Shown: piece after piece, positions 6,137 to 63,531 of the stretch | How the letters are laid out: every line of letters starts with the position of its first letter | Numbering within the stretch: position 1 is the stretch's first letter | Origin: a virus | DNA: 64,000 nt | Strand: one strand, 5' to 3' | Virus record (IMG/VR): IMGVR_UViG_3300045988_174371 | Span: 32,001-96,000 of that record | Notes under the pieces: generated by a model | Databases searched by the model: none | The model's input: only the letters and a program-made list of their open reading frames with translations | Told to the model about the DNA's origin: nothing | Program-made: the position numbers and the translations under genes

Positions 6137-6137
6137 C

Positions 6138-6642: not shown

Positions 6643-6781
6643 ACTTCTTATAGAGTGCCCGACACGTAACATACTGCAAAGATTGAGTGTGATAGATATG
6701 CGGCTACCACACTGCCAATCCTAGAAGATTCTTCGTCCGTTGGGGACTGAGGTTAATGTGGCGCAAACCACCCTGACGAAT

Positions 6782-6811
6782 TTTTGTCGTGTCTCAAAAC
6801 TGTGGTACAGT
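6782..6811 (+). promoter_or_regulatory. family promoter
   Basis: TGTGGTACAGT core 60 nt upstream of the 6871 start. Confidence 0.55.
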
Positions 6812-6870
6812 GTATTTCGTGAAGCTTCGCGCTTCCACACCCATAGTACGGTAACTACCAAAGGAGGACA

Positions 6871-7293: not shown

Positions 7294-7331
7294 CATCTTC
7301 CCTGCCTGATTGAGCTGACTACCGTATAGAG

Positions 7332-7370
7332 CAAAGTGCCCCTCGCATTGAATTTGCGAGGGGCACTTTG
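7332..7370. terminator. bidirectional hairpin terminator
   Basis: CAAAGTGCCCCTCGCA/TGCGAGGGGCACTTTG between convergent genes. Confidence 0.75.
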
Positions 7371-7401
7371 TTGCGCCATTTGCTATTGGTGTGCGTTGGG
7401 G

Positions 7402-8508: not shown

Positions 8509-8608
8509 GTGCCTCCTTTGGTGGCTACCACCGTATGTTTAGGTGGGGCAGTTGATGTGGGTAACGTATGTGCGGCGTGTAATGATTGATGCCGTATTTA
8601 TTAAAAAT

Positions 8609-8639
8609 AGTTTATCACATATCTCAGGTTAAGGTGCAT
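8609..8639 (-). promoter_or_regulatory. family promoter
   Basis: minus reading ATGCAC-N14-TGTGATAAACT upstream of 7402..8508. Confidence 0.5.
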
Positions 8640-8775
8640 AGATAAAAGTTGGTTCTCTTTCTCGCATATCACTACCACCCATTCTTAAATGTGATACGAA
8701 TAGGTGGGGTGAAGTCACCGCCCAGCTGTCCGCTGAGTGGCAACCTCGCCCCACCTATTATCTCAAGGGCGCTTT

Positions 8776-9846
8776 CTAGCGCTTACGCTTCTTCTTCTTA
8801 GTGAGGAAGGCATTGGAAACTACCTTGAAGTGGGCGCGGTTTCCCAGCTCCCTGCGGGGCTTGCCGTCCTTGAAGTACCAGACGATACCCTCTACGGTTT
8901 CACCCGGCGCAACGGCAGAGGTGATGGTGTCAGGCTGAGCAACGGCATTGCCTGCGTCCCAGGTAACGTTGTCGAGGATGGGAACCCAGAGCCCTGCGTC
9001 CTTGAATCGACGTTCAACATCTGCGTTAGATGCGTGGAAAGCGCGGAAGTCTGCAACGTCGCCGGTGGCGAACTTAAACTTCGAGCTAATCTTGTTGCAG
9101 AAGAGTTCACCCTGTACCCATTCACCAGGCTTGAGGCTGTCGAACAGTTCTGCGTAGCGGGAGTAGCCGTCGCGGTAGTACTTCCAAGCGGAGCTGTTGA
9201 GTGCGTCCTGCTTGATGGCGTAGTTGCGGTTAGCGATGCGGATAGCGCCAGTTTCAACATCTCGCCAGACGGTCATGGAGGTTCCGTCAATCTTCTCGGT
9301 AGCGTACACATCATCAGCAGAGATGTTTTCGAAGAAGGAGGCGGGAATGTTCTGGACGCGCTCAGCATCAGTAGTGCCAATGAACCCTGGGAAGCTTTCC
9401 AGACCCTCTTCGCCAACCGCGAGGATAGCATCTTCAATGTGCTTGGTGACAATGCCGTCAAAGTAAGCATCAACCTCATCCTGGGAAGCCTCCGCAGATA
9501 GACCTTCAAAGCTTTCCAGGGGAAGCAGGAGACCTTGGGAGAGGCTTTCACGGAAGTGCTGGCTACGGAGCACAACACCTGAGATTGCCTTGCCGTTAAT
9601 GATGCGGGTTGCCTTCTTGCCCTTAATGGGGGCAAATGCAGGGAAGTCGCTACTCAGCAGGGAGTCAATCTCAAAGTAGACCGCCTTGTCGCCTTCCTGC
9701 ATGGTCTTGGGTGCTACCACCCACCATAGGGTGTTCTTAGGGTTTGCCATGTGGATGAAGTTTGCGGGGTCGTTGCATTCCTTGGTCTTGTCGATGGTGA
9801 CAATGCGGGCGAGGTGGCGGATGCCGTCTACAGCAGTCGATGCCAT
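8776..9846 (-). CDS. ATP-dependent RNA ligase, DRB0094/Rnl5-like (356 aa)
   Basis: nucleotidyltransferase motif I EKIDGTS (KxDG), motif III-like GELFC, motif IV EGIVW, motif V FKVVS; N-terminal OB-like region with AVYFEIDSLL, typical of the DRB0094 family; GAAAGGA SD. Confidence 0.8.
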   Translation of the reverse strand: MASTAVDGIRHLARIVTIDKTKECNDPANFIHMANPKNTLWWVVAPKTMQEGDKAVYFEIDSLLSSDFPAFAPIKGKKATRIINGKAISGVVLRSQHFRESLSQGLLLPLESFEGLSAEASQDEVDAYFDGIVTKHIEDAILAVGEEGLESFPGFIGTTDAERVQNIPASFFENISADDVYATEKIDGTSMTVWRDVETGAIRIANRNYAIKQDALNSSAWKYYRDGYSRYAELFDSLKPGEWVQGELFCNKISSKFKFATGDVADFRAFHASNADVERRFKDAGLWVPILDNVTWDAGNAVAQPDTITSAVAPGETVEGIVWYFKDGKPRRELGNRAHFKVVSNAFLTKKKKRKR

Positions 9847-9933
9847 AAGAGTATTTTCCTTTCAGGAAGTGATGTGTAAGCAATGGTTTTGTTGAGTATG
9901 TATAAGGTTCTCACTCAATCACCATATACATAA

Positions 9934-9962
9934 AGTCTACCACAGATTTGGGACTATGGCAA
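9934..9962 (-). promoter_or_regulatory. family promoter
   Basis: minus reading TTGCCA-N12-TGTGGTAGACT upstream of the RNA ligase gene. Confidence 0.55.
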
Positions 9963-10098
9963 AGTGTCTGGCGTATGGGTGTGGTGTATACTGGTTACAT
10001 GATTACCCACCTATTGAAAGGATAACGCCTACTGTGAATAACAGTGTGATGCGAGTTTTGAAGATGCACGCCAAGAAGTATGGCGGGGAGGTTTCTTA

Positions 10099-10515
10099 AT
10101 GAGTGAGTTCGTCCGGGCGTTTGAGACATTGCTACTGTCGCAGTTCTGGTTGTTCGGCATGTATACCTTGTATCTGCTAGTAACTGGCTCCAGACTATAC
10201 AGAGCGGTCTTCATGCAACGCGAGCTACCCGAACGTATTGCGTTGCCTGCGCTACTGCTCTTCACGGGGGTGTTTCGCCTAAGTATGGATAGGCAGGTTC
10301 CTGGTTATGCTGTGATTGCTGTTCCTGTGGTGTTGCTTGTTGCTGTCGTGGTTGCGGTGAAGCTTGTTCAGCTTATTGTGCCGCCGACGTTGTTCTTTTT
10401 CTTCGGCTGGGTTTTTCTGCTTATGGTCTCTATTCTGAAGGTTGCCCCGGAGGAGGTTCGCGATAAGGTGTTTAGCATACTGAGGGGGCTTCTAGAGCGC
10501 GGTGAGGCAAGCTAA
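10099..10515 (+). CDS. membrane protein, about 4 TM (138 aa)
   Basis: GGGGAGG SD 8 nt before ATG; hydrophobic throughout; terminator 10557..10613. Confidence 0.75.
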   Translation: MSEFVRAFETLLLSQFWLFGMYTLYLLVTGSRLYRAVFMQRELPERIALPALLLFTGVFRLSMDRQVPGYAVIAVPVVLLVAVVVAVKLVQLIVPPTLFFFFGWVFLLMVSILKVAPEEVRDKVFSILRGLLERGEAS

Positions 10516-10556
10516 TCATTCGCATAAGCTTAGCGCCTGTTGAGGGAAGTAGAAGC

Positions 10557-10613
10557 GCCCGACCACTCTGCATCCGTTTAGTACGGAGTATTGCAGAGGG
10601 TCGGGCACTTTTA
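10557..10613. terminator. bidirectional terminator
   Basis: GCCCGACCACTCTGCA ... TGCAGAGGGTCGGGC followed by ACTTTTATT. Confidence 0.75.
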
Positions 10614-10628
10614 TTGTGCTAGATACTG

Positions 10629-11051
10629 TTAGAAGTTGTCCATCTTGAGAGTGATGTCTTCGCGCGTGATGTTCAGCTGTTCGAGCAGTGCGTCTTCAGT
10701 GGCTACATAGGACCCAGGTGCTTCACCATCAACGGTGCTGTCGAGAATTAGGAGTTCAGAGGTTGCCTCCAGTACGGAGTCTTCATCCTTGAAGTCGTAT
10801 TTATTCTTACCAGGCTGTACATCGAACGCAAGGAGCTTCAGATGGCAACAGGGGGCATAGGTGTCGTCTTCGTAAGACCACATGTGCGTGTCGGTGGCAC
10901 GCCATTCTAGCGCAAGCTTACCGCCTCGCTTGAGGTATTCGTGAACGTCTTCAGCGGTGGACAGGTAAGAGCGTTCGATTACTTCGTGGAGCTGTTCTTC
11001 TTCCTTGCGGGCAAGGTGGAAGATGTGGGTTGATTCGAGCTGGTTAGTCAT
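10629..11051 (-). CDS. hypothetical protein, GGKL-family paralog of 29445..29867 (140 aa; track ORF trimmed)
   Basis: start MTNQ.. aligns with the paralog start MTTN..; shared motifs EYxxxGGKLxLxWR and C-terminal ..REDITL/KEDITF. Confidence 0.7.
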   Translation of the reverse strand: MTNQLESTHIFHLARKEEEQLHEVIERSYLSTAEDVHEYLKRGGKLALEWRATDTHMWSYEDDTYAPCCHLKLLAFDVQPGKNKYDFKDEDSVLEATSELLILDSTVDGEAPGSYVATEDALLEQLNITREDITLKMDNF

Positions 11052-11132
11052 GGGGCAGAGAGCCTTTCTGTAAGGTTTCGATTTGGTGTCTTTCAAGGGG
11101 GCGGATTATGCCTACCCCAACCATATGCGGGT

Positions 11133-11162
11133 AGTCTACCACATATTCTGTGTATCGAGCAA
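11133..11162 (-). promoter_or_regulatory. family promoter
   Basis: minus reading TTGCTC-N13-TGTGGTAGACT. Confidence 0.55.
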
Positions 11163-11217
11163 GAAGTGGGTGTACACCACGGGGATATGCCTGTGGAAAA
11201 ATATTTGACACTACATA

Positions 11218-11247
11218 TTGCATACCGAGGATTTTATGTGGTACAGT
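11218..11247 (+). promoter_or_regulatory. family promoter
   Basis: TTGCAT-N13-TGTGGTACAGT. Confidence 0.65.
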
Positions 11248-11309
11248 ATTCATGTCGGCAGGAATTGCAGACATCAACAACTTTACCCAATCAATCTAAG
11301 GAGAGCATT

Positions 11310-11750
11310 ATGGCTCAGGCAACCCAGGCACTCACTATCGAAGGTCAGCTCCACATGGACGAAGCTCAGAAGAAGATTGTGAAGCTTCCCAAGTATGGCG
11401 AACCAACCGGCAATCACTACCAGCACCTCATCAACTTCCTGCAAGGTGAACACACCAAGAAGACCAACACCCCCTACCAGATGTACGGAAAGTTCAACAT
11501 CTGGAGCAACAGTGAAGAAGGCGAAGAACCCTACGAGATTGGCTACGAAGTAGAGTTCACCTCTGACGCAGAATGCGAGAAGCCGACCGGCATCCGAATC
11601 TTCGAATACCGCGAAGACGACGAAGAAGGTTGCGAGAGCAACAAGGAACTTCTCGCCCTGAATGGTCGAAAGTTCAAGGTTACCAGTGCAATGCCCTTCA
11701 GCTCCGCAGGTGACTACCTGGCAGAAACGACTATCGCCCTCATCGACTAA
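11310..11750 (+). CDS. hypothetical acidic protein (146 aa; track ORF 11166.. trimmed)
   Basis: TAAGGAG SD 6 nt before the ATG at 11310; the promoter lies inside the longer track ORF. Confidence 0.75.
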   Translation: MAQATQALTIEGQLHMDEAQKKIVKLPKYGEPTGNHYQHLINFLQGEHTKKTNTPYQMYGKFNIWSNSEEGEEPYEIGYEVEFTSDAECEKPTGIRIFEYREDDEEGCESNKELLALNGRKFKVTSAMPFSSAGDYLAETTIALID

Positions 11751-12055
11751 GCACAGTAAGGTAAGGCGGGGCATCTCCAACTAAGGAGGTGTCCCGCCTT
11801 ACCATGCCCTGCAACCCCTGAGCCTGCCATGAGCGCCACTTTTGGCGGATGTGAGGTAAATATTCCACCGTCTCGCTTACCGTTATGGTAGGGGCGTTCC
11901 GCTTCTCGCGCAGTATTCTTCGCGGTGTTAAGGTCATGGTCAAGCTTGTACCCACAATGCCCGCAGTGGAACATGCGGTCACTCAACCCCTGCTTCTCAG
12001 TTGCGCGCTCCTCACAGTTACTACAGGTCTGAGATGACGAATTGAAATGCGTCAA
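11747..12055 (-). pseudogene. tnpB: truncated TnpB (IS200/IS605-family OrfB) C-terminal remnant
   Basis: SSQTCSNCEE..GLSDRMFHCGHCGYKLDHDLNTAKN matches the TnpB zinc-ribbon/RuvC-III C-terminus (TSQxCSxCG...LSxRxxxCxxCG...DRDxNAAxN); the ~350 aa N-terminal part is absent and the region upstream is the promoter/RBS of 12140..12574. Confidence 0.65.
11760..11803 (+). terminator. hairpin terminator
   Basis: GGTAAGGCGGGG ... CCCGCCTTACC immediately after the 11750 stop. Confidence 0.65.
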
Positions 12056-12139
12056 TACTAAATAGGTGGGAAGATAGTTCTGTCAAGCCGCTACAAACTG
12101 GCGGCACACATTCATGCTATCAACATCAAGGAGACCCCT

Positions 12140-12574
12140 ATGCAGAACGACTACCAGCCGGGCGAAGACCTCACCATCACCATTGCGCACATCGAGCACA
12201 ACATCAAGGTTCTTACCGTCATTCATAAGAAGGCGCAGGCATTGCTCGACAAGCCCATTGAGGCGCTATATGCCATGACCGATGCCTTTGAGGAAGGGGA
12301 GCCGGTAAACATGCCGATGAACCTCAAGGCTGTTACCCGCATTCAGAAAGTAGATGCTATCTTGAGGGATGCGCGGGCGGTTATTGAGGATGCGCGGCTA
12401 TCCCTTGCTATTATGGCGTGCGGCGGCATTAACCTAGAGTCTTTCAACTCTGACAGTATGGTGATGCGAGATGCTGTGGCGCTTGAGGTTACTACAGGGA
12501 AGGCAGTGGAGGAGCTTTCTGTTCGCTGGTTGGAGCACTCCACTCACCTAGATACCGTAGGTGAGGAGTTCTAA
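12140..12574 (+). CDS. hypothetical protein (144 aa)
   Basis: AAGGAG SD; terminator 12587..12624. Confidence 0.75.
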   Translation: MQNDYQPGEDLTITIAHIEHNIKVLTVIHKKAQALLDKPIEALYAMTDAFEEGEPVNMPMNLKAVTRIQKVDAILRDARAVIEDARLSLAIMACGGINLESFNSDSMVMRDAVALEVTTGKAVEELSVRWLEHSTHLDTVGEEF

Positions 12575-12586
12575 GGCGTAGCACTA

Positions 12587-12624
12587 GGCAGAAGGGGTAA
12601 GCATAGTTGCCGCCCCCTTCTGCC
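12587..12624 (+). terminator. hairpin terminator
   Basis: GGCAGAAGGGG ... CCCCTTCTGCC. Confidence 0.7.
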
Positions 12625-12656
12625 TAATATTATTTCTGGAGCTACATCTAATCGGC

Positions 12657-12686
12657 TTGCAAAAATAGTTCCTAGTGTGGTACTAT
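12657..12686 (+). promoter_or_regulatory. family promoter
   Basis: TTGCAA-N13-TGTGGTACTAT. Confidence 0.65.
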
Positions 12687-12737
12687 TTAAGTGTAGTAAG
12701 GAGCTACAGTAAAGCAACTACCGAAAGGTTCTCAATC

Positions 12738-13046
12738 ATGTACAAGTTCAACTTCTCCATCCCCGAAGCCATGTACGAAAAGTACGGCTGGGATTTTGAC
12801 ACTGAATGGGACCTCAACATCACCGGCTTCCGCGTCTACAATAAGACCCAGCGCATTACCATGCAGGTTATCGTTGAAGCAACTGATGAGGTTTTCAATG
12901 TTGAACTGGAAGGTATGGATTACGTAAAGTTCCCTCTGACTAAGGAGCTTATCGAACACGCACGCAAGAGCAAGAAGCCTCTGTCTTGTGTGGAGGTCGT
13001 ATGCTTCAATAAGCACTACGTCAAGTTCACTGCAAAGAACCTTTAA
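12738..13046 (+). CDS. hypothetical protein (102 aa; track ORF trimmed)
   Basis: CCGAAAGGTT SD 7 nt before the ATG at 12738; the promoter lies inside the longer track ORF. Confidence 0.75.
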   Translation: MYKFNFSIPEAMYEKYGWDFDTEWDLNITGFRVYNKTQRITMQVIVEATDEVFNVELEGMDYVKFPLTKELIEHARKSKKPLSCVEVVCFNKHYVKFTAKNL

Positions 13047-13047
13047 T

Positions 13048-13099
13048 ATACGCATAGTTAGCCCCTAGCATAGCCACCCTAGGGGCTAACTATGCGTAT
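13048..13099 (+). terminator. long palindromic terminator
   Basis: 21-bp perfect arms ATACGCATAGTTAGCCCCTAG/CTAGGGGCTAACTATGCGTAT. Confidence 0.75.
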
Positions 13100-13159
13100 G
13101 GGCAGACATGCTCATCCTTCTCAGAGATGGCGTGGGTAGCCACTTACATAGTCCACCAC

Positions 13160-13189
13160 TTGCACACCGCAATAAATATGTGCTATACT
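13160..13189 (+). promoter_or_regulatory. family promoter
   Basis: TTGCAC-N13-TGTGCTATACT. Confidence 0.65.
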
Positions 13190-13227
13190 TGAATCATCAA
13201 GTCAAAATCTACCGAAAGGTTCCTAAA

Positions 13228-13488
13228 ATGCCTCTCTACATCCCCCTCATGCTGGCGGGCGGCTTCACCGCATACGTCGCGCTCATGAACGAACCCAAGT
13301 TCCGTAGCCTCCTGCGCATCTGGCACACCGCTGAAAAGTTTAAGCCGCTCGCCGCAAACGCTAAGCCCAGCGAGGAAAGCGCTAAGTCCGACAATGAGGA
13401 CGTAAAGCCCAAGGTTCCCGAACACCACATGTGCGTTGCAGACGACAAGTGTATCTATAAGCATATAGACCACGCCAAGAGTAAGTAG
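13228..13488 (+). CDS. small single-TM protein (86 aa; track ORF trimmed)
   Basis: CCGAAAGGTT SD; N-terminal TM PLYIPLMLAGGFTAYVALM then a charged tail. Confidence 0.7.
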   Translation: MPLYIPLMLAGGFTAYVALMNEPKFRSLLRIWHTAEKFKPLAANAKPSEESAKSDNEDVKPKVPEHHMCVADDKCIYKHIDHAKSK

Positions 13489-13490
13489 TG

Positions 13491-13547
13491 ACATACACAT
13501 AAAAAGACCTCAGAGGGCGTACCTCTGAGGTCTTTTTATGTGTATGT
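13491..13547. terminator. 26-bp perfect palindrome, bidirectional terminator
   Basis: ACATACACATAAAAAGACCTCAGAGG-gcgta-CCTCTGAGGTCTTTTTATGTGTATGT. Confidence 0.75.
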
Positions 13548-13686
13548 GAGCAAGTGTACCCAGTGAGCCTTTAAATGTCTCAGGCAGGCGCACGGAAGCT
13601 CCTAAAGGCACCTGTGTGGCACTTAGTCCATCCGCCCTACCCGCACATTCCAGTCAGCGTTTCCGTAAAGGCGGGCGTTCGAAGTG

Positions 13687-14514
13687 CTACGTAACCGGCG
13701 GAAACTCCTGCTCCCATGAGTCACCATAAGTACTCATGGTGTTACCCCACGGGTCGTAGCGCACCTGCGCCTGTGCCTTCATTTCAGAAACCTCACGGCT
13801 ATGCGCCTGGAAGATTTCCAGCAGGTATGCAATGTGCGCGTATCGTGCGGGGGGAAGGGTACTGGTTCCTGTGAAGCCCTCGGTGGTCGGATAGAGACCG
13901 TTTGTGTCACGCTCATCCTGCATAATGTCGCCTGACTCAGCTTCTACGCAGGTAATCCAGTCGGTATCAGAGGTGTCCACCATGATACCGCTATAGTAAG
14001 CACATTCTTCATAGGTGAGGTCGCTTTCTGCGGGGACGATACGCATCTGGTAGCGGAGCGTATTCTGCTGGTCACGCTTCTTCTCGCTATCGTATGCAAG
14101 CTCCATGCCTGCCGCAGAGATAACTTCCGTAGCAGTGCTTGGCGGGACTATAACCTCACCATCAGGGAGGGAGATGTAGAAGTAGCTACTTTCCTCCTCT
14201 ATGATGTCAATTGCCGGGTCAGCGGGGCGGGTAGCAATGTCTTCTGGGGTGCTCAGCTGGCGGTCGATAACCATCCGCTGTAGAGCATGGTCGTTCCAGT
14301 ATGCAAGAAGTTCTAGGGCGTTATATGTTTCGCCGGTGGTGGTGGTCACTTCCGGGTACTTGCGGTAGCGGTTTTTGCTGTAGGTTCCGTGGATTGCGCC
14401 GCCACCAAACTCGGCGGGGATGAGTAGCTTCACAGCATCATGACGCTTAATATGCCACTTTTTACGAGGGGTGGGCGTATCCCCCTGCGCATAGGTTACC
14501 ATGATGCGGCTCAT
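13687..14514 (-). CDS. hypothetical protein (275 aa)
   Basis: GAGGGAG SD; promoter 14582..14611. Confidence 0.75.
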   Translation of the reverse strand: MSRIMVTYAQGDTPTPRKKWHIKRHDAVKLLIPAEFGGGAIHGTYSKNRYRKYPEVTTTTGETYNALELLAYWNDHALQRMVIDRQLSTPEDIATRPADPAIDIIEEESSYFYISLPDGEVIVPPSTATEVISAAGMELAYDSEKKRDQQNTLRYQMRIVPAESDLTYEECAYYSGIMVDTSDTDWITCVEAESGDIMQDERDTNGLYPTTEGFTGTSTLPPARYAHIAYLLEIFQAHSREVSEMKAQAQVRYDPWGNTMSTYGDSWEQEFPPVT

Positions 14515-14581
14515 TGCCTTCTTACTCCCTCAGATTGATTACTGGAATGTCTGAGCTATACGCCCAGCAACTATGCAACCA

Positions 14582-14611
14582 ATTATACCACATATTTAAA
14601 CGCTGGAAAGA
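14582..14611 (-). promoter_or_regulatory. family promoter
   Basis: minus reading TGTGGTATAAT core. Confidence 0.6.
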
Positions 14612-14613
14612 AA

Positions 14614-14663
14614 GGGCTTGAGGTATGGCGCGGGAAATGAAACCCGCGCCGCACCTCAAGCCC
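14614..14663 (-). terminator. hairpin terminator
   Basis: GGGCTTGAGGT ... ACCTCAAGCCC with an inner GGCGCGGG/CCCGCGCC stem. Confidence 0.7.
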
Positions 14664-14684
14664 TGAGTGACCTACAAGTCCCTA

Positions 14685-15290
14685 CTATTCGTTATGCAAC
14701 ACGCGGCGCAAAGAACCCGTATCCACAGGCACAGTAAGACCAGATGCCGTAATAGTAGGCGGCTCAGCAGTACGTCGAGCCCTCTGCCAAATACTCACAA
14801 TAACACCAACAAGCACAAAAGCATTACCAATGAGATTCGTGTAACTGCCCACCGCAATGTAGTAGCTAACCCACGCGGCAACATTCAGCAATGTAACAGT
14901 TTTAAGCAACGCGAAACTCTCCATGAGCGCCATAGCAAGCCCAGTAGCACCACCCAAAAGAGCAAGAGTGCCCGGAGACCAAACCCCACGCCCAAGAACC
15001 GCATACTGAGTAACCGCCGCCGCCACAACCGCAACACCCATAGACGTTACCCTATAGACGGTCGTCTGCACGAACTTCAGCCTATCCTCCAGCATGAGCA
15101 TACTGTAATAAGTGAGGTTCACCAGGTTCATCACCAGCACACTCGACTGCCCAAGCAGAAACGACTGTATGCCTGTCATGAGGCACATGCCAAAGCTTAG
15201 GTTCCTCACCCATCGCCGGTCAGCATAGCCAATAAAGAATAGCGAAGCGCTAATACACAGCCCCAATACCTGAACGATAATCATAGACAT
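14685..15290 (-). CDS. YgjV-like inner membrane protein (201 aa)
   Basis: multi-TM; the N-terminal FFIGYADRRWVRNLSFGMCLMTGIQSFLLG and C-terminal NVAAWVSYYIAVGSYTNLIGN blocks resemble my recollection of E. coli YgjV; SD spacing is long. Confidence 0.5.
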   Translation of the reverse strand: MSMIIVQVLGLCISASLFFIGYADRRWVRNLSFGMCLMTGIQSFLLGQSSVLVMNLVNLTYYSMLMLEDRLKFVQTTVYRVTSMGVAVVAAAVTQYAVLGRGVWSPGTLALLGGATGLAMALMESFALLKTVTLLNVAAWVSYYIAVGSYTNLIGNAFVLVGVIVSIWQRARRTAEPPTITASGLTVPVDTGSLRRVLHNE

Positions 15291-15420
15291 AGGTTACAAT
15301 ACTGCCTTTCTGAGTGACCCAGCACCTCGCGCCCAGCGAAGCACCCCCCCCCACGCATAACCTGCATGAGAGGGGGTGCTTTAATTCCGCACTACTTCCA
15401 GCAATGCGCTTACATCACTT

Positions 15421-15451
15421 AGCTTAGCACAGCTTCCATATGCCGTAAAGC
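15421..15451 (-). promoter_or_regulatory. family promoter
   Basis: minus reading TTTACG-N12-TGTGCTAAGCT. Confidence 0.45.
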
Positions 15452-15453
15452 GG

Positions 15454-15561
15454 CTAGAATGGGAGCATGGTGGAGATTACGCCAAGAACGACGAAGAACG
15501 CCATAGCGCACAAGCCAACAGTAATATTTCGGTCGGGGTTATCGTTACGGTTGCTACTCAT
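15454..15561 (-). CDS. candidate 35-aa single-TM micro-protein (not in ORF track)
   Basis: AGGAG SD 5 nt before ATG; MSSNRNDNPDRNITVGLCAMAFFVVLGVISTMLPF, a polar head plus one TM. Confidence 0.45.
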   Translation of the reverse strand: MSSNRNDNPDRNITVGLCAMAFFVVLGVISTMLPF

Positions 15562-15606
15562 TATTGCTCCTATCGGGGGGTACTTACTAATTGCGCCCTT
15601 GGGGGA

Positions 15607-16185
15607 CTACAGCTTTTCCGCCCATTCCTGGTACTCTGTCAGCATCTTACGGGCGGGGATGATGTCGATATGGTTGATGTGGCTGTAGCCAAATACAGCG
15701 GACTTAGCGTATTCCAGTAGGTTAGGGATGCTCACCTCTAGCGGTGCTTCATGAACCGCGATTTTGGGAAAGTAATCCCATTCGTCGTCATCTTCCTTGT
15801 CAGGGACAGTTGCAGAGTCCACAAGGTAGACGTATTTAGCGGTTTCGGGTTCTATGTCTTCACTCCAGTATTCGTACATGGGCTTACTGACGGGGATTTC
15901 ATTGCGCGCTTCGTCGTACAGACCGCCGTATTCGTTGGCATTGCGGCAGAACTCTGAACTGTGAGCGAGTGCGTTTCGGCTCAGGTGCTCCGCAATATCA
16001 TCAAGAGTGTTTACGGGTTCCCCGTAGACGGTGATTTCAGTGCCGCCCATGAGGGACTGGCGGGGCGCATGAATGATGACGCTGTAGGCTTTACCTCCAG
16101 CGCGTTCAATCTCTTCAATGCTGGACTGGATGCCTTCGATGTCGTTACGGTAGATACCTGAATACTCCACAGGTTCGTGAATCAT
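15607..16185 (-). CDS. hypothetical acidic protein (192 aa)
   Basis: AGAAAG SD; complete ORF. Confidence 0.7.
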   Translation of the reverse strand: MIHEPVEYSGIYRNDIEGIQSSIEEIERAGGKAYSVIIHAPRQSLMGGTEITVYGEPVNTLDDIAEHLSRNALAHSSEFCRNANEYGGLYDEARNEIPVSKPMYEYWSEDIEPETAKYVYLVDSATVPDKEDDDEWDYFPKIAVHEAPLEVSIPNLLEYAKSAVFGYSHINHIDIIPARKMLTEYQEWAEKL

Positions 16186-27568: not shown

Positions 27569-27984
27569 TATTCTGTCACCACCGGAACCGCCTTCTCTGC
27601 GCTACCTACGGGTACATGGATAATCGTTTCCGCCTTCACAAACTTCACGGTAACGTTCCTGGTACAAGAGCCATACAGGGTAACATCTGCTTTTTCGTAC
27701 CTTAGTGGGTCGATGCATTCTTTGTGTCCGGCAGCGATTTCCTCAGGATTGAGCGCGTACTCGTACTTACGTTCGACGCGAGCCTCCGTATCAGTAGCGG
27801 GCAAGTCGTCCTTCACAACCACTTCCATTGGCGCATCTAGCGACCCTTTATACACCTTTCGAGCGGCAAGAGTGCCATCAGAGCGCTTCTCAACCCACCT
27901 ATAAGTGGTGCCTTCAGGATTGACTCTCAGATTTGAGATGGGGTAGGTGTGTTTCGCCTTCCATTTTACGGTTGTCGGCATCAA
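27568..27984 (-). CDS. C-terminal (extracytoplasmic-domain) half of a frame-split TM-domain family paralog (138 aa)
   Basis: HTYPISNLRVNPEGTTYRWVEKRSDGTL...DLPATDTEARVE...IIHVPVGS aligns with residues ~165-291 of 30028..30903. Confidence 0.65.
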   Translation of the reverse strand: MMPTTVKWKAKHTYPISNLRVNPEGTTYRWVEKRSDGTLAARKVYKGSLDAPMEVVVKDDLPATDTEARVERKYEYALNPEEIAAGHKECIDPLRYEKADVTLYGSCTRNVTVKFVKAETIIHVPVGSAEKAVPVVTE

Positions 27985-28453
27985 CGTAGTGCGTCACAGG
28001 CTGAGTGAACTTCGCATCCTCAGCCTTTGCGCCATTGACCATTGAGGTAGCCATCCCTACAAGAAGTAGGGAGAGTAGGTAGATAAGCCCGGTCAGGTAC
28101 ACATCTTCAGCCTTTATACCCTCCTTGTACTCTTCCACTGCTCCCCCTTGGTTGAAGGAGCTGATGGCGGCGACAAGGGTTATGATAGCCGCAATGATGA
28201 CGTGAGCTATAAGCCAGCGTGCGTCAAAGAATAAGACGAGCACACATGACACTGCTACGTGGGCGGCAACGAATAGGCGCGCCCACCGCCGCATAAACGA
28301 GTTCACGGCATAAGTTGTCCTGCTTACCTGCCGGTCTTTAGTGATGATGGCAGTGACCACTATAAGCGGGATGAGGATATAGGCGGCAATGCTCACAACG
28401 GTGGCTATAAGCCATGCTGTATTGGTGTCCATAAAGGGTTGTTGTCCTCTCAT
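27914..28453 (-). CDS. N-terminal (multi-TM) half of a frame-split TM-domain family paralog (179 aa)
   Basis: 4 TM then KFTQPVTHYVDADNRKMEGE aligning with KFTQSVSYYLDADNHKLEGD of 30028..30903; the frame is lost near 27950. Confidence 0.65.
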   Translation of the reverse strand: MRGQQPFMDTNTAWLIATVVSIAAYILIPLIVVTAIITKDRQVSRTTYAVNSFMRRWARLFVAAHVAVSCVLVLFFDARWLIAHVIIAAIITLVAAISSFNQGGAVEEYKEGIKAEDVYLTGLIYLLSLLLVGMATSMVNGAKAEDAKFTQPVTHYVDADNRKMEGETHLPHLKSESQS

Positions 28454-28576
28454 GTATAGTCAGGTGGGTCAAGGTTTAGCTCCTGGCGATAGTCCTCCAG
28501 GTAACTAACGCCAGCCTTCTCGGTCTTGACACCGCCGCCACCCCATAGAGCTTTGGCAGTGCCCCCTCGCTGGCGG
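28454..28576 (-). ncRNA. structured leader carrying RNA element copy B
   Basis: GGUGGCGGCGGUGUCAAGACCGAGAAGGCUGGCG...CGCCAGGAGCUAAACCUUGACCCACC (28463..28542), ending 10 nt before the ATG at 28453. Confidence 0.55.
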
Positions 28577-29341
28577 TTAGCGATTGAGCTTGTTGTCTAT
28601 TTCAGTGGCAATTACGTCCCTGATGATTTCGTCTATAGTGTGTCGCTCCTGGTGGTCTGCCCAGGTGGTTGCCTCAATGGTGGCGTGGGTGGGGAGTCTG
28701 TCGATGAGGTGCGCGAGCTTCGCTGAGGTTTCCTTAATCTCGTTGTAGAGTTCTTCGAGTGCTTCGCCGGTCAGCCATTCCTTTTGGGTTACAGGCGGCG
28801 TAGCGCTAGTGGGCGGGGTAGTGAGAAGGTTTAACACTTCTCGTACTGCTTCCACTGCGGGCTCGGTGGTTGCCAGGGCGTTCTCCAGGTGTGAGGTGAA
28901 GGTGCGGAGGTTGATGTTTGCCACTGCTTCACGGTAGGACTCATGCTTGTACTGCTCGGCTTCGGCGTATTCCATAATTGGCGCAATGTAGGGGCTGTTT
29001 CGCAAGGTAGCCGGAAGGCTGTGGCGACTGTAGCTTGTGTCATGGTCGTGCAGTAGCGTGTAGTATGCCAGGGCATGTAGCTTCTGGGTAAGTACAGTGT
29101 CTTGAGTGGGGATGTTCGTTTCGGGCATGAACGTGTAACCTGCGTGTTCGTAGCCGCCTACGTAGTCGTCGCTCCTATGCCAACCGGCAAGGTTTTCGGT
29201 GGGTACGTAGTATCCGTGCCCGTTGCGGTCAAGGTGTAGGGTGGCACCTAGCACGTTGAACCAGGTTGCGCCGGTTTCCTTGTCGTGGTGTTGGGCTACG
29301 AGGGTGTTTACGTATTCTTCTAGGGTGATTTCTGTGGACAT
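28577..29341 (-). CDS. hypothetical protein (254 aa; track ORF trimmed)
   Basis: AGAGGAA SD before the ATG at 29341 (MSTEITLEE..). Confidence 0.7.
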   Translation of the reverse strand: MSTEITLEEYVNTLVAQHHDKETGATWFNVLGATLHLDRNGHGYYVPTENLAGWHRSDDYVGGYEHAGYTFMPETNIPTQDTVLTQKLHALAYYTLLHDHDTSYSRHSLPATLRNSPYIAPIMEYAEAEQYKHESYREAVANINLRTFTSHLENALATTEPAVEAVREVLNLLTTPPTSATPPVTQKEWLTGEALEELYNEIKETSAKLAHLIDRLPTHATIEATTWADHQERHTIDEIIRDVIATEIDNKLNR

Positions 29342-54358: not shown

Positions 54359-55531
54359 ATGCGCAACCTTGACCTCTCCACCCTGAATGCAGGCGACATT
54401 CTGCTCGCAGTGTATAACGACAACTTCGTTCGCACTTTCTGGAAGGGTGTTCACCCTAACCTGCTGGTCGTACACTCTGTAGACCCGGCAAGCTCCACTG
54501 CCATTGTCGCCGCCGCCGGGGAGGGAAACTACGGTATGTACCTGCTGAGCATTAACGAAGACGGCATCACCTTTGAAAGGTTCGCTGATGCCACCGATAA
54601 GTTCGCCCCGGTTCAGGTATTCCAGTTCACCCCCGCCGAAGCTCAGGCACAGGGTTTGGTTCGCCGCCTGAATGCGGAGGGTAAGCTGTTCAAGTTCCTT
54701 GAATCCATCAATGATGACGCTCTTATCCACGACGTGCGCCAGGCGGTAGCAAAGGAATACTCTCTTCACTACTTCATGGGTAAGCCCAACACCCTTCTTG
54801 GTGACCTGGAACACGCCCGCAAGGTAACGCAGAACATGTACACTGTTGCAGAGAATGAGTATGAGCGAATCTTGCGAGAAAAAGGTGAGATTCTGGATAA
54901 GATGGTCGAACTTGTGGATGAGGCTATCGCTAAGGTAAACCCGCTCCTTGCTGGCTCTGGCATGACCTCCAACCGCTCCACTGACGCTAACACCATTCAG
55001 CACCACTTTGAATACACTAAAGACGCTCACACTTTCCGCGTGGGTAGCACTTTCGCTGTACATGATGTAAACTACACGGTTACTCGCGTCTCTAAGTCCC
55101 GCGCATACGTAGTGAAGACTGATACGGGTGAAGATGCTGGCTACGTCACCTACACGAAGAGCCGCGGTGTGCGCCTGCATGTCGGCAATGGCGAGCCCGC
55201 TGTGTCTTTCCGCTATTCCCCTGTCCCGGTTGCTAATGCGGATGACATGCAGGCATTTGATGCGACTAAGCGCGAAATTCACGACATTGCCACTGAGTGC
55301 ATGGCAAACCTTCGAGACCTGCTACTCAAGGTTGCCGTCAGCAATAAGTTTGGTGATACCCTGAGCCGCGTATACCGCCGCAATATCGTACCTCACGGCG
55401 TTACCACCACTACCTCCCTCCTGTATGACCTGCTTTCCGAAATTGAAGCCGTAAAGGAAGCCCTGCATGAGCAGGCTGAGGTGAGCATGTTCAAGATGGA
55501 GCGCCTGATTACCCAGACCTACGGCAAGTAA
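54359..55531 (+). CDS. hypothetical protein (390 aa)
   Basis: GAAAGGA SD; promoter and strong terminator; the antisense 315-aa ORF is rejected. Confidence 0.8.
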   Translation: MRNLDLSTLNAGDILLAVYNDNFVRTFWKGVHPNLLVVHSVDPASSTAIVAAAGEGNYGMYLLSINEDGITFERFADATDKFAPVQVFQFTPAEAQAQGLVRRLNAEGKLFKFLESINDDALIHDVRQAVAKEYSLHYFMGKPNTLLGDLEHARKVTQNMYTVAENEYERILREKGEILDKMVELVDEAIAKVNPLLAGSGMTSNRSTDANTIQHHFEYTKDAHTFRVGSTFAVHDVNYTVTRVSKSRAYVVKTDTGEDAGYVTYTKSRGVRLHVGNGEPAVSFRYSPVPVANADDMQAFDATKREIHDIATECMANLRDLLLKVAVSNKFGDTLSRVYRRNIVPHGVTTTTSLLYDLLSEIEAVKEALHEQAEVSMFKMERLITQTYGK

Positions 55532-55599: not shown

Positions 55600-55780
55600 A
55601 TCCTGTGCGCTGACTGGTCGAATAACATGTCTACAGGTGACACATGCGCCCCTAAGGGGATAAAGCGGTGATAATGGGTTCTCTACCTCAGTGGTAAAGT
55701 TAGGGGCTTAGGGAGCCGCGTGTAGCTTAGCCCCAATGGGAAGCCCTCCGCTTAAACATCTCTCCATTCAGTCCACTTTT

Positions 55781-55791
55781 TGCGGTATAAT
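55781..55791 (+). promoter_or_regulatory. extended -10 promoter
   Basis: TGCGGTATAAT. Confidence 0.5.
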
Positions 55792-55820
55792 GGAAAGCAG
55801 TCAATCAGAAAGGAGCGAGT

Positions 55821-55946
55821 GTGGTCACCGCTGGAGACATGTTCATGCGGGCTATTGCTGAGGCGGAAGCTATTAAGGCAACATGGGAAGAAGCTGGGCT
55901 AACCCCTCAGGAAGCCCTGGAACTTCTACGCCACCTTCAATACTAG
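55821..55946 (+). CDS. candidate 41-aa helical protein (not in ORF track, GTG start)
   Basis: AGGAG SD 5 nt before GTG; MVTAGDMFMRAIAEAEAIKATWEEAGLTPQEALELLRHLQY; own promoter and terminator. Confidence 0.5.
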   Translation: MVTAGDMFMRAIAEAEAIKATWEEAGLTPQEALELLRHLQY

Positions 55947-55950
55947 AAAC

Positions 55951-55990
55951 ACAGTAAAAGCCCTCACGACTAGGTGAGGGCTTTTACTGT
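55951..55990. terminator. bidirectional terminator
   Basis: 17-bp arms ACAGTAAAAGCCCTCAC/GTGAGGGCTTTTACTGT. Confidence 0.8.
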
Positions 55991-56200
55991 ACCTACATGG
56001 GTTACAGGAGCCACCTCAAAGCACAGGGGGGGGAGAAGCTTGGATTATAAGCTACTCTTCCCACTGCTGGGTGGGTCAGGGATTTTCCCTGGCGGTACCC
56101 CCCCCCGCCAGCCGAAGCCAGCCTTCCTGGTCTTGACGTGTTAGCGTCCGTTTAGTTTACCCACCTCTCCCAGTCTCTCACAGGCGAGGTGTATTGGTTG
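55991..56200 (-). ncRNA. free-standing RNA element copy C
   Basis: starts right after the 56201 stop and ends at terminator 55951..55990 with no ORF; hairpin 56162..56191 (loop UGUGAGAGAC) plus domain 56070..56137 (GUCAAGACCAGGAAGGCUGGC..CUGGCGG..CCGCCAG..CCCUGACCCACC). Confidence 0.55.
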
Positions 56201-56710
56201 CTACTGCTCCAGGTATTCCAGGAGGAAGCGCTTTACGGATGCCGCCGCGTGGTCAGCTTCGGCATTAGTGTTGCGACTGCGGGTTAGGGCGTACAGGTAT
56301 AGGGCGTATCCTTCCGTGAACTCATCTAGCTCACCGGCAGGCTTGCGTCCGTGCTCGTTAGCGAGGTGTCCTACAAGGGCGAGCTGGGCTTCTTGGCGGG
56401 TCATTTCGGCGGGGTGGGTGTCGGGTCGCCCAACTTCAACATACCTGCCCGCCTTGTTGATACTGAAAAGGGATGCTACGGCGACTTCGTGTGCGTCCGC
56501 ATTTGAGCGGTAGGTCATATGCATCTGCGGGATGTACGCCCCCTCATTGATAGCGTAGCCGCCGTCGGGTAGGGGCGCGGTGTGGAAGCGGGTGGGGTTG
56601 GTGTTGTCGCCTGCTGGGTAGTAGATGTATTCCCACCGCCCGGAGGTGCGGTTGAGGGTTGCTTCGATGTGCTTGTCGAGGAAGTTCTGTAGGGTGGTTT
56701 CGGTGGTCAT
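56201..56710 (-). CDS. hypothetical protein (169 aa; track ORF trimmed)
   Basis: AGAAAGAG SD before the ATG at 56710 (MTTETTLQ..). Confidence 0.7.
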   Translation of the reverse strand: MTTETTLQNFLDKHIEATLNRTSGRWEYIYYPAGDNTNPTRFHTAPLPDGGYAINEGAYIPQMHMTYRSNADAHEVAVASLFSINKAGRYVEVGRPDTHPAEMTRQEAQLALVGHLANEHGRKPAGELDEFTEGYALYLYALTRSRNTNAEADHAAASVKRFLLEYLEQ

Positions 56711-56775
56711 GGGTGGTGTTTCTCTTTCTGTGGATGCCCTGCGGGGTTGCAGGGGTTTGTAGTTGAGTGTTTGTT

Positions 56776-56813
56776 GCGCGCCCCACTGCCCGATGATGGG
56801 TGGTGGGGCGCGC
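56776..56813 (-). terminator. hairpin terminator
   Basis: GCGCGCCCCAC ... GTGGGGCGCGC. Confidence 0.65.
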
Positions 56814-56862
56814 CGGTGGGCGGGTATCCTTTGGTGACCTGCGGGATGCCCACCCAAAGCCT

Positions 56863-57975
56863 TTAGTGGTACTTGTAGAGCGCCTGAACGTCTTCCAGAC
56901 CGTACTCGGTGCGGATGAGGTTCTTCCAGTCGTCCAGGTTGCGGATGCTGGTGGGGATGCGCTTGCCGTCTTTCTTGATGATGAGGGTGTCGCCGCAGAG
57001 CTTGTTGGCGTAGACGTAGATGCCTTCCAGCTCTGCGAGCATCTGCTCTTCGGTCATGCCTGCGTATTCTGCGGGGATGTATTCGGTCAGACCTGCGCGG
57101 TTAAGTAGGTAGCTGATTGCCACAGGGAGACCGGCGAGCGCCAGCGGGGTTACATAACCGCACTTGCAGGGGGTGTCATCGCTGGTTTCGTGGAGCGCGT
57201 TGTTGAGGCAGAAGGTGTCGAGGTTGCTAGTGGGGTTGGGGGTCAGGGGCGCAGATGCTTCTCGGACAGCGTATCGCCATGCCGCATCGGATACCTCGAT
57301 TGCTTCTCCCCACTCGGGGCTACCGTTCACGGTTCCATCTGCGGCGAGGCGGTAGTTATTGACGGTTGCCTTGCCGGGCTCTGCGGACAAGATGACATTG
57401 CCTGACAGTCGAGCGCCGGAGGTATTTACGTCGTACACGATAACCTGTCCGGTGGTGCTGAGTCCTTCATGTTCACCACCGATAACGCTACTGTACCCGT
57501 CAATGACACAGTTCTTGAGGGTGGTTCGCGCGGCGAAAGCGTGACCCATAAGCACGGTGTCTTCCATGTAGAGCTGGTCGAGAGCTACGCCCGCCTTGTC
57601 AATAATGGCATTGCAACCCAGCAGGCGCTTACCCAGCTCATTGTTGCAGGTGTAGAGGTTGTTGCGCACCTTTTCTACCTGGAGCTGGTCGGCTACAGCA
57701 TCAAGGGTCTCAATGAAGGTAGCCTTAGGGCGGACGGAGGTGCCACTGTAGAGTACCGCTCCGGGGCGGTTCAGCATGGCTTCGCGGCGGAACTGAGAGA
57801 GCTCCCGGACGGGGTTGTGGAGGCTCAGGCTGTCCTCATGCAGGCTTGCTTTGTTGGTGGGCATGGTCAAGCCGTGGCGCGCGCGGCTCCAAGCAGGAAG
57901 CTTCATCTGCGCGGTGACGTTCTTGGAGGTCTTGATGATGCAAGCGGTAGGCTTAGTGCTTTCACGAAGGGTCAT
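56863..57975 (-). CDS. hypothetical protein with beta-helix-like central repeats (370 aa)
   Basis: AAAGGAG SD; promoter 58038..58067. Confidence 0.8.
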   Translation of the reverse strand: MTLRESTKPTACIIKTSKNVTAQMKLPAWSRARHGLTMPTNKASLHEDSLSLHNPVRELSQFRREAMLNRPGAVLYSGTSVRPKATFIETLDAVADQLQVEKVRNNLYTCNNELGKRLLGCNAIIDKAGVALDQLYMEDTVLMGHAFAARTTLKNCVIDGYSSVIGGEHEGLSTTGQVIVYDVNTSGARLSGNVILSAEPGKATVNNYRLAADGTVNGSPEWGEAIEVSDAAWRYAVREASAPLTPNPTSNLDTFCLNNALHETSDDTPCKCGYVTPLALAGLPVAISYLLNRAGLTEYIPAEYAGMTEEQMLAELEGIYVYANKLCGDTLIIKKDGKRIPTSIRNLDDWKNLIRTEYGLEDVQALYKYH

Positions 57976-62613: not shown

Positions 62614-63531
62614 ATGACCATTCTTCAAAAGTATATGATGGGCTCTTCCGCCGCGCTCCTAACATGCTTCCTAACGGCGGCGCTACTAATCGCCATTATT
62701 GCCTCTGTTCGCCGCTATCTTGATGCGCGGGCGGTAAGGAAGGGTTTGGCTTTACCAAGCGGCGCTTCCTCTTGGTTCACCTACGCATACGGTGTCGTAG
62801 CTCTGCTTCACCTAATCATTGCCCTTACTTTGGCAGGGGACAACCAGGACATGTTTGTCACTGTTTTTTGGACGGGTCTAGCAATACCCTTGATGGTACT
62901 AGTCCTCTATCACGTCATTCAAGGCATAGGTAATGATAGTGCCCCTCAGGATGCCCCCAGCGAATCCGACCTCATATCGCAGTATAAGGCGACATACTTC
63001 GACACTCTTCTACTGACTGCAATATGTACTATCTTTGCGACCATTTTTGCCGTCGTCGGTAGCACTGTCTATGAGAGTAAAACGGTCGTTACCGAGGTTA
63101 TAGATGGGCGAGTAGTGGAGTATCGAGGCGAAATTGAACTCACCTCTAACGGTGTAGCTGTCACTATAGCGCCCGCAACGAGTGAATATGAAGAATACGA
63201 CTATGTTTCGAAGAACCATCAGCGGAGGGAAGCTACGAGCACTGTTGCCACCTGGCTTGAGCGTGACTCTAGCGGCTCTGTAAAGACCGTCTCTATCGAC
63301 ACGGGCGGGCGGGGCGGTTTCAACATTGCCGATGACCTACCTGCCGGTGAAGCGCCTTACGTCACCTACACGCCTCAGTACAGCTTGGATAGTTACAGTA
63401 AGCCAGGTGATGCCCTCTGCGTCATGAAGCGTGACACTGGTTGCCCGCTAAATGCACGCCATATCTATGATTCTGTCACGATACATATTCCTGCTGGGTC
63501 TACAGACAGGATGGTGAGCACGAAAGCTTAA
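62614..63531 (+). CDS. TM-domain family paralog (305 aa)
   Basis: AGGAAGG SD; N-terminal TMs; ..TWLERDSSGSV..DLPAGEAPYVT..C..C..TIHIPAGS. Confidence 0.8.
   Translation: MTILQKYMMGSSAALLTCFLTAALLIAIIASVRRYLDARAVRKGLALPSGASSWFTYAYGVVALLHLIIALTLAGDNQDMFVTVFWTGLAIPLMVLVLYHVIQGIGNDSAPQDAPSESDLISQYKATYFDTLLLTAICTIFATIFAVVGSTVYESKTVVTEVIDGRVVEYRGEIELTSNGVAVTIAPATSEYEEYDYVSKNHQRREATSTVATWLERDSSGSVKTVSIDTGGRGGFNIADDLPAGEAPYVTYTPQYSLDSYSKPGDALCVMKRDTGCPLNARHIYDSVTIHIPAGSTDRMVSTKA

Follow-up and report, generated by a model that had tools for sequence, protein, structure and literature searches.

Cas12n nucleases are regarded as an early intermediate between the transposon-encoded TnpB and CRISPR-Cas12. 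To our knowledge, they have so far been studied in loci of Actinomycetota, each with one trans-activating CRISPR RNA (tracrRNA) and one array. The enzyme of Rothia dentocariosa, RdCas12n (PDB 9J09; type V-N, formerly V-U4), is a monomeric nuclease with a 5'-AAC protospacer-adjacent motif (PAM) and a tracrRNA region at the 3' end of its open reading frame (ORF) (PMC12216341). In its engineered single-guide RNA (sgRNA) of 214 nt, a five-stem scaffold of 194 nt is followed by 20 nt of guide at the 3' end. The stem-1 loop forms a pseudoknot with the last scaffold nucleotides, an A-rich strand forms a triplex on stem 1, and stems 2, 3 and 5 can do without their upper parts (PMC12216341). Phage-encoded V-U4 nucleases were noted earlier in landfill viromes (PMC12607003), and we found no description in the literature of a dispersed family of Cas12n scaffolds in phages. 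Here we describe a family of RNA elements through one of its members, copy C, in 64,000 nt of viral DNA (positions 32,001 to 96,000 of IMG/VR record IMGVR_UViG_3300045988_174371; hereafter the window, whose coordinates are used unless another locus is named). We consider it likely, with a probability of about 0.78, that copy C is a natural single-guide RNA gene of a type V-N Cas12n system in uncultivated phages of ~300 kb. Its RNA would comprise a tracrRNA-like scaffold (helices P1 to P4) with a P5-P6 extension, a degenerate repeat hairpin ending in UGGCUCC, a 20-nt guide and a terminator. In relatives of this phage, the scaffold stands directly behind every full-length cas12n gene and stands at the head of mini-arrays whose period (61 nt) and repeat type are those of bacterial V-N arrays, and the sequences that follow scaffold ends match AAC-PAM sites in related phages.

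The scaffold is a covarying RNA family. Three instances of its core, GTCAAGACCNNGA(A)AGGCTGGC, lie in the window, all on the minus strand (5662-5683, 28510-28530 and 56117-56137), and 100 shuffles of the window yield none. The other two copies are copy A (5596..5768), whose degenerate repeat end, GGGAGUGGCUUC, lies further 3', and copy B (28442..28583), which has neither P1 nor repeat and abuts the start of ORF 27914..28453. Pattern scans, a covariance model (R1) and nhmmer were used to find further copies. R1 gave 353 matches overall: 29 from the window together with two IMG/VR contigs (of 307 and 319 kb), and 204 plus 120 from metagenome loci, many of them on contigs of 240-360 kb. From the same family, nhmmer recovered 293 distinct sequences. 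A scan of a genome collection gave chance matches only (Rhizobium, Streptomyces and one Chloroflexota metagenome-assembled genome), none of which R1 confirmed. The family is missing from Rfam: at the gathering threshold, Rfam 15 identified only tRNAs in the window, copy C drew only terminator-like matches at E<=10, and neither scaffold nor repeats were matched in L028, a locus that holds a relative's tRNA island. The window shares 91-95% identity across 4831..16154 with a 307-kb viral contig, IMGVR_UViG_3300045988_174689, we found no cultured phage related to it at the DNA level, and its proteins have almost no Pfam or PHROG matches.

In an alignment of 142 distinct sequences with 30 modelled pairs, 96.4% of cells form standard pairs, compared to 31-49% in controls with slid partners. 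Double changes occur in 18 pairs (462 cells), and none of 500 shuffles reaches the covariation values. The family P1, CUCGCCUGU/ACGGGAGAG, is lengthened by CAC/GUG. P2 and P3 are variable hairpins, the interior of P2 giving mutual information, and the helix equivalent to P3 (helix 4) covaries, with double changes in all four pairs. P4, with 8 bp, has the strongest covariation of all helices, and the adjoining P4a (GGGU/ACCC) has weaker support, from one-sided changes only. Nearly invariant unpaired blocks are also present: the P1 loop GAGAG, UAAACGG, CAAGACCAGGA, GAGGGU and ACCG. The abundance of G-U pairs indicates that the structure belongs to RNA of the element strand, which is the tRNA-sense strand. 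An alternative pairing of GUCAAG with CUUGAC was rejected because it is broken in paralogs, whereas P4 covaries. A mutual-information search for pseudoknots over the 142 sequences returned only the known helices and the P2 interior. Two further candidate pairings, GGUG with YACC and GGUG with the tail, involve invariant bases, and GGUG is absent from 16% of copies. Pairing between tail and repeat, as in an anti-repeat, is found in 48 of 130 units, compared to 29 +/- 3 after shuffling, and the largest class is unpaired. Resemblances to domain IV of signal recognition particle RNA, to the T-box antiterminator (GGGUGGNACCGCG versus GGGUYACCGUC) and to tRNA minihelices were dropped because they lack Rfam support and the UGG bulge is missing.

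TnpB/Cas12-like proteins make up three of the 98 ORF clusters that neighbour the elements. All nine full-length Cas12n-like ORFs (348-564 aa as called) have a scaffold on the same strand, 19-24 nt past the stop codon. A representative phage protein matches PDB 9J09/9UDI over residues 16-519 (E=2.6e-173), contains the Pfam domains HTH_OrfB_IS605, OrfB_IS605 and Cas12f1-like_TNB, and is identified by PADLOC as Cas12u4 (1e-164). It groups with Cas12n, not with the ISDra2 TnpB (E=7e-35). The effector is a close homolog of RdCas12n, and both systems have the scaffold at the 3' end of the gene for the effector. An intact 520-aa copy of cas12n is present in the closest relative. The window itself has a remnant on the minus strand, at 11894..12145, where only the C-terminal zinc-ribbon part of a Cas12n-like gene is left (43% identity to residues 432-515). 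Over the wider minus-strand region, 11283..12145, this remnant reads as that of a second Cas12n/TnpB-like gene, with ORF 11747..12055 as its zinc-ribbon part; next comes a 165-aa ORF (11283..11780) that is kept in relatives and has no family match. We also considered whether the elements are functionless miniature inverted-repeat transposable elements or another selfish repeat, an explanation at odds with the invariant unpaired blocks and the effector linkage.

Cas12n homologs encoded on plasmids of C. glutamicum, M. luteus and C. maris share 44-47% identity with the phage protein. At each of these loci, the best R1 match lies at the 3' end of cas12n and on its strand (E=0.004, 6.9e-5 and 0.32, respectively), which is where the published description puts the tracrRNA (PMC12216341). 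The parts that align are P1 and AAACGG, the latter present in the tracr regions of M. luteus and C. glutamicum. The scores are weak, but the co-location of the matches with cas12n 3' ends is persuasive. Behind all three bacterial genes is an array with a 61-nt period and repeats related to those of the phages. In the few sequences available, complementarity of the stem-1 loop to the repeat end is kept from lineage to lineage, as GAG:CUC (phages), GGC:GCC (M. luteus) and GGA:UCC (Corynebacterium).

When the phage RNA is mapped onto the published description of RdCas12n, P1 and its loop would correspond to stem 1, UAAACGG to the triplex strand, P2 and P3 to stems 2 and 3, and P4 to stem 4, with the repeat hairpin and AUGGCUCC providing stem 5 and the pseudoknot strand. 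By analogy, the GAG of the P1 loop may form a pseudoknot with the CUC of GGCUCC, and UAAACGG may lie along stem 1 as a triplex strand. The likeness extends to overall architecture: a scaffold of ~190 nt in which stem 1 is conserved, the junction is A-rich, stems 2 and 3 vary, and stem 4 is joined by a repeat-derived stem 5, then a guide at the 3' end, a 5'-AAC PAM and 61-nt-period arrays with similar repeats. Unlike in bacterial V-N systems, the phage scaffold and repeat are naturally fused in one RNA, and each genome holds dozens of units apart from the effector gene, with their own promoters or 15-27 nt behind tRNA genes. Their carriers are giant phages, not chromosomes or plasmids of Actinomycetota. 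As judged from the sequences, the kind of molecule is known and its arrangement is new, in that it is borne by phages, massively multiplied, naturally single-guide and coupled to tRNAs.

The repeats themselves allow a different explanation. Downstream of the core, a hairpin recurs with the repeat consensus UUUUCCCCGUACACGCGGGGAUGGCUCC, found 175 times on the element strand and 20 times on the opposite strand. Among these repeats (193 in the spacing analysis), neighbours are separated by 61 nt in 41 cases and 60 nt in six, and arrays contain up to four repeats with unique 33-nt spacers. The consensus is identical at 23 of 28 positions to a Streptomyces repeat located beside annotated type I-E cas genes, and together with the 61-nt period this match first suggested hijacking or decoying of a host I-E system. 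That idea was demoted by the cas12n adjacency and by the bacterial V-N arrays with the same period, and no class 1 Cas proteins occur among the 98 neighbouring ORF clusters or the 74 window ORFs. The form of it that we weighed is an RNA anti-CRISPR (Racr)-like decoy, in which Cas6e/Cascade would be titrated away by a repeat hairpin that resembles the I-E repeats of the host, while the 5' domain served only for stability. Solitary phage repeat units can indeed be RNA anti-CRISPRs, including against type I-E (PMC10651486), and like those units the phage elements have a solitary repeat-like hairpin, strong promoters and, in keeping with a decoy, a high copy number. However, the same repeat type and period characterize bona fide V-N arrays, the scaffold is tied to cas12n and resembles its tracrRNA, the guides have AAC-flanked targets, and a decoy would leave the invariant unpaired nucleotides unexplained. 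Racrs also differ in being short repeat mimics that have no conserved scaffold of ~160 nt and do not sit beside an effector gene. We therefore regard the decoy as quite improbable.

V-N-type repeats and arrays are present in the phage family, and copy C has a single degenerate repeat. As a separate observation, arrays of Actinomycetota type I-E (Streptomyces laculatispora plasmid NZ_CP120993; L245 8500..10100) and type V-N (L246-L248) have a common 61-nt period and very similar repeats, which would fit with V-N systems borrowing the I-E adaptation machinery. One phage spacer, TTCGAGTCCAAATTCCATTGGAACACAGGATAG, is kept in several genomes (L028 2767..2798, L133, L161, L210 and L217); it starts like a tRNA T-arm, TTCGAGTCC, and may be derived from a tRNA gene. 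The phage arrays also recall the virus-borne mini-CRISPR arrays that serve in interviral conflicts (PMC6858448) and the CRISPR systems of huge phages in being short and in having spacers that match related viruses. Those arrays differ in that they use host effectors and have no tracr-like scaffold; for the Cas12n units, the phage itself encodes the effector, and the guide of most units is single and fixed.

Array spacers have protospacers in related phage loci, each preceded by AAC. For the stand-alone units, we took the 24 nt past every scaffold end (169 distinct sequences) and compared them to all collected related loci. After removal of scaffold-flanked matches by a filter, 70 were left, with AAC in front of 33 and AAT in front of seven; several of the remaining matches are orthologous scaffold ends that escaped the filter. 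An A-rich 5' PAM (AAC) and a guide 3' of the scaffold are borne out for the family. The window may contain a targeted site of its own: positions 62794..62817 on the minus strand, inside the plus-strand ORF 62614..63531, match the guide after a scaffold end in a related contig, L223, exactly (24/24) next to AAT, and the equivalent site in another relative, L244, has AAC plus two mismatches, as might follow from a PAM-escape change in the window. The elements may be targets as well. An array spacer, GGGCACTCACGTGTCAAGACTAGGAAGGCTGAA, in L159 (1838..1870) and related loci matches the scaffold element of other phages, and because UAAAC of the scaffold provides an AAC PAM, certain phages may aim at the guide genes that related phages carry in multiple copies.

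Among the three copies in the window, copy C is the most complete. It scores 125 bits against R1 and has a fold z-score of -4.7. Its scaffold runs on the minus strand, like all parts described here, from the start of P1 at 56191 to the end of GGCUCC at 56007. P1 (56162..56191), which reads CACCUCGCCUGU-GAGAG-ACUGGGAGAGGUG and shows covariation, contains the invariant GAGAG loop (56179..56175) as proposed partner of CUC in the pseudoknot. It is followed by J1/2 (56149..56161; GGUAAACUAAACG) with the near-invariant UAAACGG of the proposed triplex, by P2 (56135..56148; GACG-CUAACA-CGUC) with covarying base pairs, by J2/3 (56123..56134; AAGACCAGGAAG) with the invariant CAAGACCAGGA, and by P3 (56107..56122; GCUGGC-UUCG-GCUGGC) with G-U pairs and a UUCG loop. 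The first-pass annotation, a reading of the same DNA that had called copy C an orphan and a candidate free-standing small RNA, took this last segment for a local duplication. The repeated hexamers are there, at 56122..56107, but they form a covarying helix of the family. A run of nine G residues (G9; C9 on the plus strand) at 56098..56106, correctly placed by that annotation, spans J3/4 and the 5' strand of P4a. Positions 56073..56097 hold a UACC bulge, the P4 hairpin (CAGGG-AAAAU-CCCUG) and the 3' strand of P4a, ACCC. P5 (56071..56060; CCCA-GCAG-UGGG) and P6 (56057..56033; GAGUAGCUU-auaaucc-AAGCUUCUC) are subfamily-specific extensions, and P6 shows compensatory changes across nine aligned subfamily members. 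A run of eight C residues (C8; G8 on the plus strand) falls in the pyrimidine-rich 5' arm of the degenerate repeat hairpin; it lies at 56026..56033, two bases from the 56028..56035 first given for it. The remaining repeat-like module (56007..56025; UGUGCUUUGAGG-UGGCUCC) is the 3' end of the scaffold, with the scaffold end GAGGUGGCUCC at 56017..56007 and GGCUCC at 56012..56007. The putative 20-nt guide, UGUAACCCAUGUAGGUACAG, is placed at 55987..56006 by the Cas12n sgRNA layout and the guide/target analysis.

The surroundings of copy C bear on how it is made. P1 starts 9 nt past the TAG stop codon (56203..56201) of the minus-strand ORF 56201..56710 (169 aa from ATG; extension to 56857 from TTG), so the element begins right after a stop, as had been noted. 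The ORF has zero Pfam or PHROG matches, and its ortholog in IMGVR_UViG_3300045988_174689 is 97% identical. On the other side, 16 nt separate the scaffold end from a strong bidirectional intrinsic terminator (55951..55990, both strands), also recognized at first pass, with a 17-bp stem, ACAGUAAAAGCCCUCAC-cuaguc-GUGAGGGCUUUUACUGU, and a U run on each strand. Folding recovered this hairpin (55990..55951), and it resembles terminator portions of several Rfam models. The next conserved gene past it is the convergent plus-strand ORF 54359..55531, which is kept in relatives. A 41-codon plus-strand ORF, 55821..55946, has the ribosome-binding site GAAAGGAG and ends 5 nt short of the shared terminator, also convergent. 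With both of these ORFs convergent, nothing is encoded 3' of copy C on its strand, in agreement with the annotation's finding of no plausible same-strand ORF downstream. Its conclusion that the element is an RNA in its own right and not a leader likewise agrees with the family, whose copies are often tRNA-linked or promoter-bearing and only in few cases precede an ORF. Two of its labels found no support. Promoter prediction over 55600..57100 found none for copy C, including in the 9 nt between stop codon and P1, so the free-standing label is unsupported and the RNA is probably co-transcribed with the upstream ORF. It is also no orphan: its position behind the same ORF is kept in at least three close genomes, more diverged orthologs occur in further loci, and the family has ~290 copies.

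A location directly after an ORF and before a terminator, a stable fold and the lack of an Rfam match would all suit a non-CRISPR regulatory RNA or element of the 3' untranslated region (UTR) that acts by base-pairing or stabilises the upstream mRNA, in line with the small RNA proposed at first pass. The Cas12n-linked evidence points instead to a guide-RNA scaffold, and the family is mostly outside 3' UTRs, making this explanation very improbable. The terminator bears on another possibility, that the element is a put-like, cis-acting RNA for processive antitermination that keeps polymerase elongating through untranslated tRNA and CRISPR arrays. Conserved unpaired nucleotides and recurrence after each tRNA and before untranslated arrays are what such an RNA might show. 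Immediately past copy C, however, comes a strong terminator, with convergent genes after it, and antitermination leaves the cas12n adjacency, the PAM and the targets unexplained; we give it almost no credence.

The homopolymer runs of copy C probably differ in origin. The flanks of copy C are virtually identical to those of two close orthologs, and the three genomes show little or no difference in P1, J1/2, J2/3, P4, P5, P6, the scaffold end and the guide. The window's P2 lacks 22 nt relative to both orthologs. P3 also differs from both, and an identical 31-nt P3 segment is found in the paralogs L177 and L227, suggesting exchange between copies. At the G9 run, the window reads GGGGGGGGG and both orthologs read UGGAGGGUU, indicating an origin of the run by three substitutions; at this site the family has the consensus UUGAGGGU(Y). 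The A replaced by the run is invariant in 142 of 142 other copies (alignment column 150; 28 of 29 in a smaller set). The C run is 8, 10 and 7 nt long in the three genomes, with identical flanks, and paralogs have CUCGCG or CUUGCG at this site. This variation looks like either genuine homopolymer instability or assembly noise. Slippage, proposed at first for both runs, is thus plausible for the C run and does not account for the G run. That annotation had also asked whether tract lengths vary and the element is conserved in relatives: the C run varies, and the element is kept in close genomes. Its suggestion that the two runs pair with each other is borne out by RNAfold for the window sequence, where pairing of G9 with C8 gives a minimum free energy of -112.1 kcal/mol compared to -108.9 kcal/mol with the family helices enforced. 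This pairing is no feature of the family, because orthologs and paralogs are unable to form it.

These changes raise the question of whether copy C is still functional. It may be impaired in the window, given the replaced A and the truncated P2, and it could be a decaying, non-functional guide-RNA relic tolerated as a 3' UTR, with the homopolymer runs as marks of relaxed constraint. The weak repeat hairpin and the drift in C-run length agree with decay, as does copy B, which is clearly truncated in the same window. On the other hand, copy C still scores well against the model, most of its parts and its guide are (nearly) identical in three genomes, and the RdCas12n sgRNA tolerates loss of the upper portions of stems 2, 3 and 5, including the repeat-hairpin region in which the C run lies. 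We consider a relic unlikely, though a serious alternative.

Several points weigh against copy C as a guide-RNA gene. Within the window, no intact cas12n was found, only the remnant. Its own G9 run alters a universally conserved A, its repeat hairpin is degenerate, with a stem of 3-4 bp, and it carries extra hairpins, P5 and P6, that are undescribed for RdCas12n. The last 4 nt of the putative guide fall within the terminator stem. That guide has no target in the collected related loci, and no site with AAC followed by the guide was found in IMG/VR, where two 18-mer matches are chance hits to unrelated AT-rich contigs without AAC. The R1 matches at the bacterial loci are weak, one of them not significant alone. 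Neither the proposed pseudoknot nor the proposed triplex shows covariation within the phage family, where the GAG and CUC bases of the pseudoknot are invariant and thus cannot covary. Finally, the single case of presence/absence between relatives is a replacement, not a clean insertion. In this case, the closest relative (L001 604..791) has an extra scaffold-plus-guide unit where the window, at 15525..15557, has 31 unrelated nucleotides; the right boundary of the unit falls exactly after GGCUCC, and the window site has AAT and two PAM-proximal guide mismatches. The same window positions lie in a possible 36-codon hydrophobic ORF, with a C9 run nearby at 15344..15352.

The distribution of the family suggests how guide-RNA units could be expressed and spread. 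Genomic context was compared for 284 distinct copies: 148 begin at a distance of 15-27 nt past a tRNA gene on the same strand, and many others have their own TTGCA-17-TAnnnT promoter ending ~10 nt before P1. Copy C would be made by read-through from the upstream ORF, and tRNA-linked copies would be released by tRNA processing. AAC is frequent on the left flank of units, although not universal, and in 63 of 120 tRNA-linked copies it ends 5-6 nt past the tRNA. Copy C has an AAC at 56197..56199 (minus strand), 5 nt before P1, where the sequence reads GCAGUAGCAAC, then CAAUA and P1. This AAC is PAM-like, and an empty site would be expected to read AAC and then the guide. With this AAC directly bordering copy C on the left, and with a guide that is the right flank of copy C itself, the unit would be expected to cut alleles from which it is absent. 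We propose that Cas12n encoded elsewhere in the genome binds scaffold RNAs and cuts AAC-flanked targets in co-infecting relatives, and that the unit would then spread by recombinational repair, as TnpB-omegaRNA elements do. The omegaRNA (reRNA) of IS200/IS605 elements has a similar layout, with a scaffold after the nuclease gene, a guide that is the DNA of the right flank and a target- or protospacer-adjacent motif on the left, and the predicted selfish homing logic and the presence/absence polymorphism between relatives are further likenesses. Unlike TnpB elements, the phage units have no demonstrated transposon ends, and real spacer arrays exist alongside them; no TnpA (Y1) family is among the 98 neighbouring ORF clusters. 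A bolder version of the proposal, which we put forward as a tentative possibility, is that the phages carry ~20-30 dispersed natural single-guide units per genome, many of them tRNA-released, that act as selfish homing loci or weapons cutting AAC-bearing empty alleles, as an intermediate between TnpB-omegaRNA and CRISPR, with the runs of copy C serving as an on/off switch for its guide.

Other features of these genomes were noted in passing. In the tRNA island of L028, positions 5131..5221 and 4018..4086 give sub-threshold matches to the Rfam family YrlA (Y RNA-like; 38.5 and 32.6 bits, gathering threshold 69) and may be tRNA-like modules or Y-like RNAs. Downstream of copy A, the minus-strand ORF 4148..5446 encodes 432 aa; its 433-aa counterpart in L002 (3612..4913) is preceded by a partial scaffold and contains an AAC-flanked protospacer for array spacer sp8. 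An RNA ligase is encoded at 8776..9846 on the minus strand (RNA_ligase and PHA02142 OB fold), with at most 33% identity to ligases of cultured phages. The window further encodes a pair of BaxI_1-like proteins and an HTH_17 protein, and one of its ORFs has a PADLOC match to Csx1.

Hundreds of stand-alone scaffold-repeat-guide units, interleaved with tRNA genes, are thus found in giant phages. If the units are active, they would be natural single-guide RNAs, useful for the engineering of compact editors, and would represent a tRNA-coupled route of guide-RNA production in nature. Active units would also offer a view of omegaRNA-like fixed guides coexisting with adaptive arrays, and of RNA-guided warfare or homing between phages.

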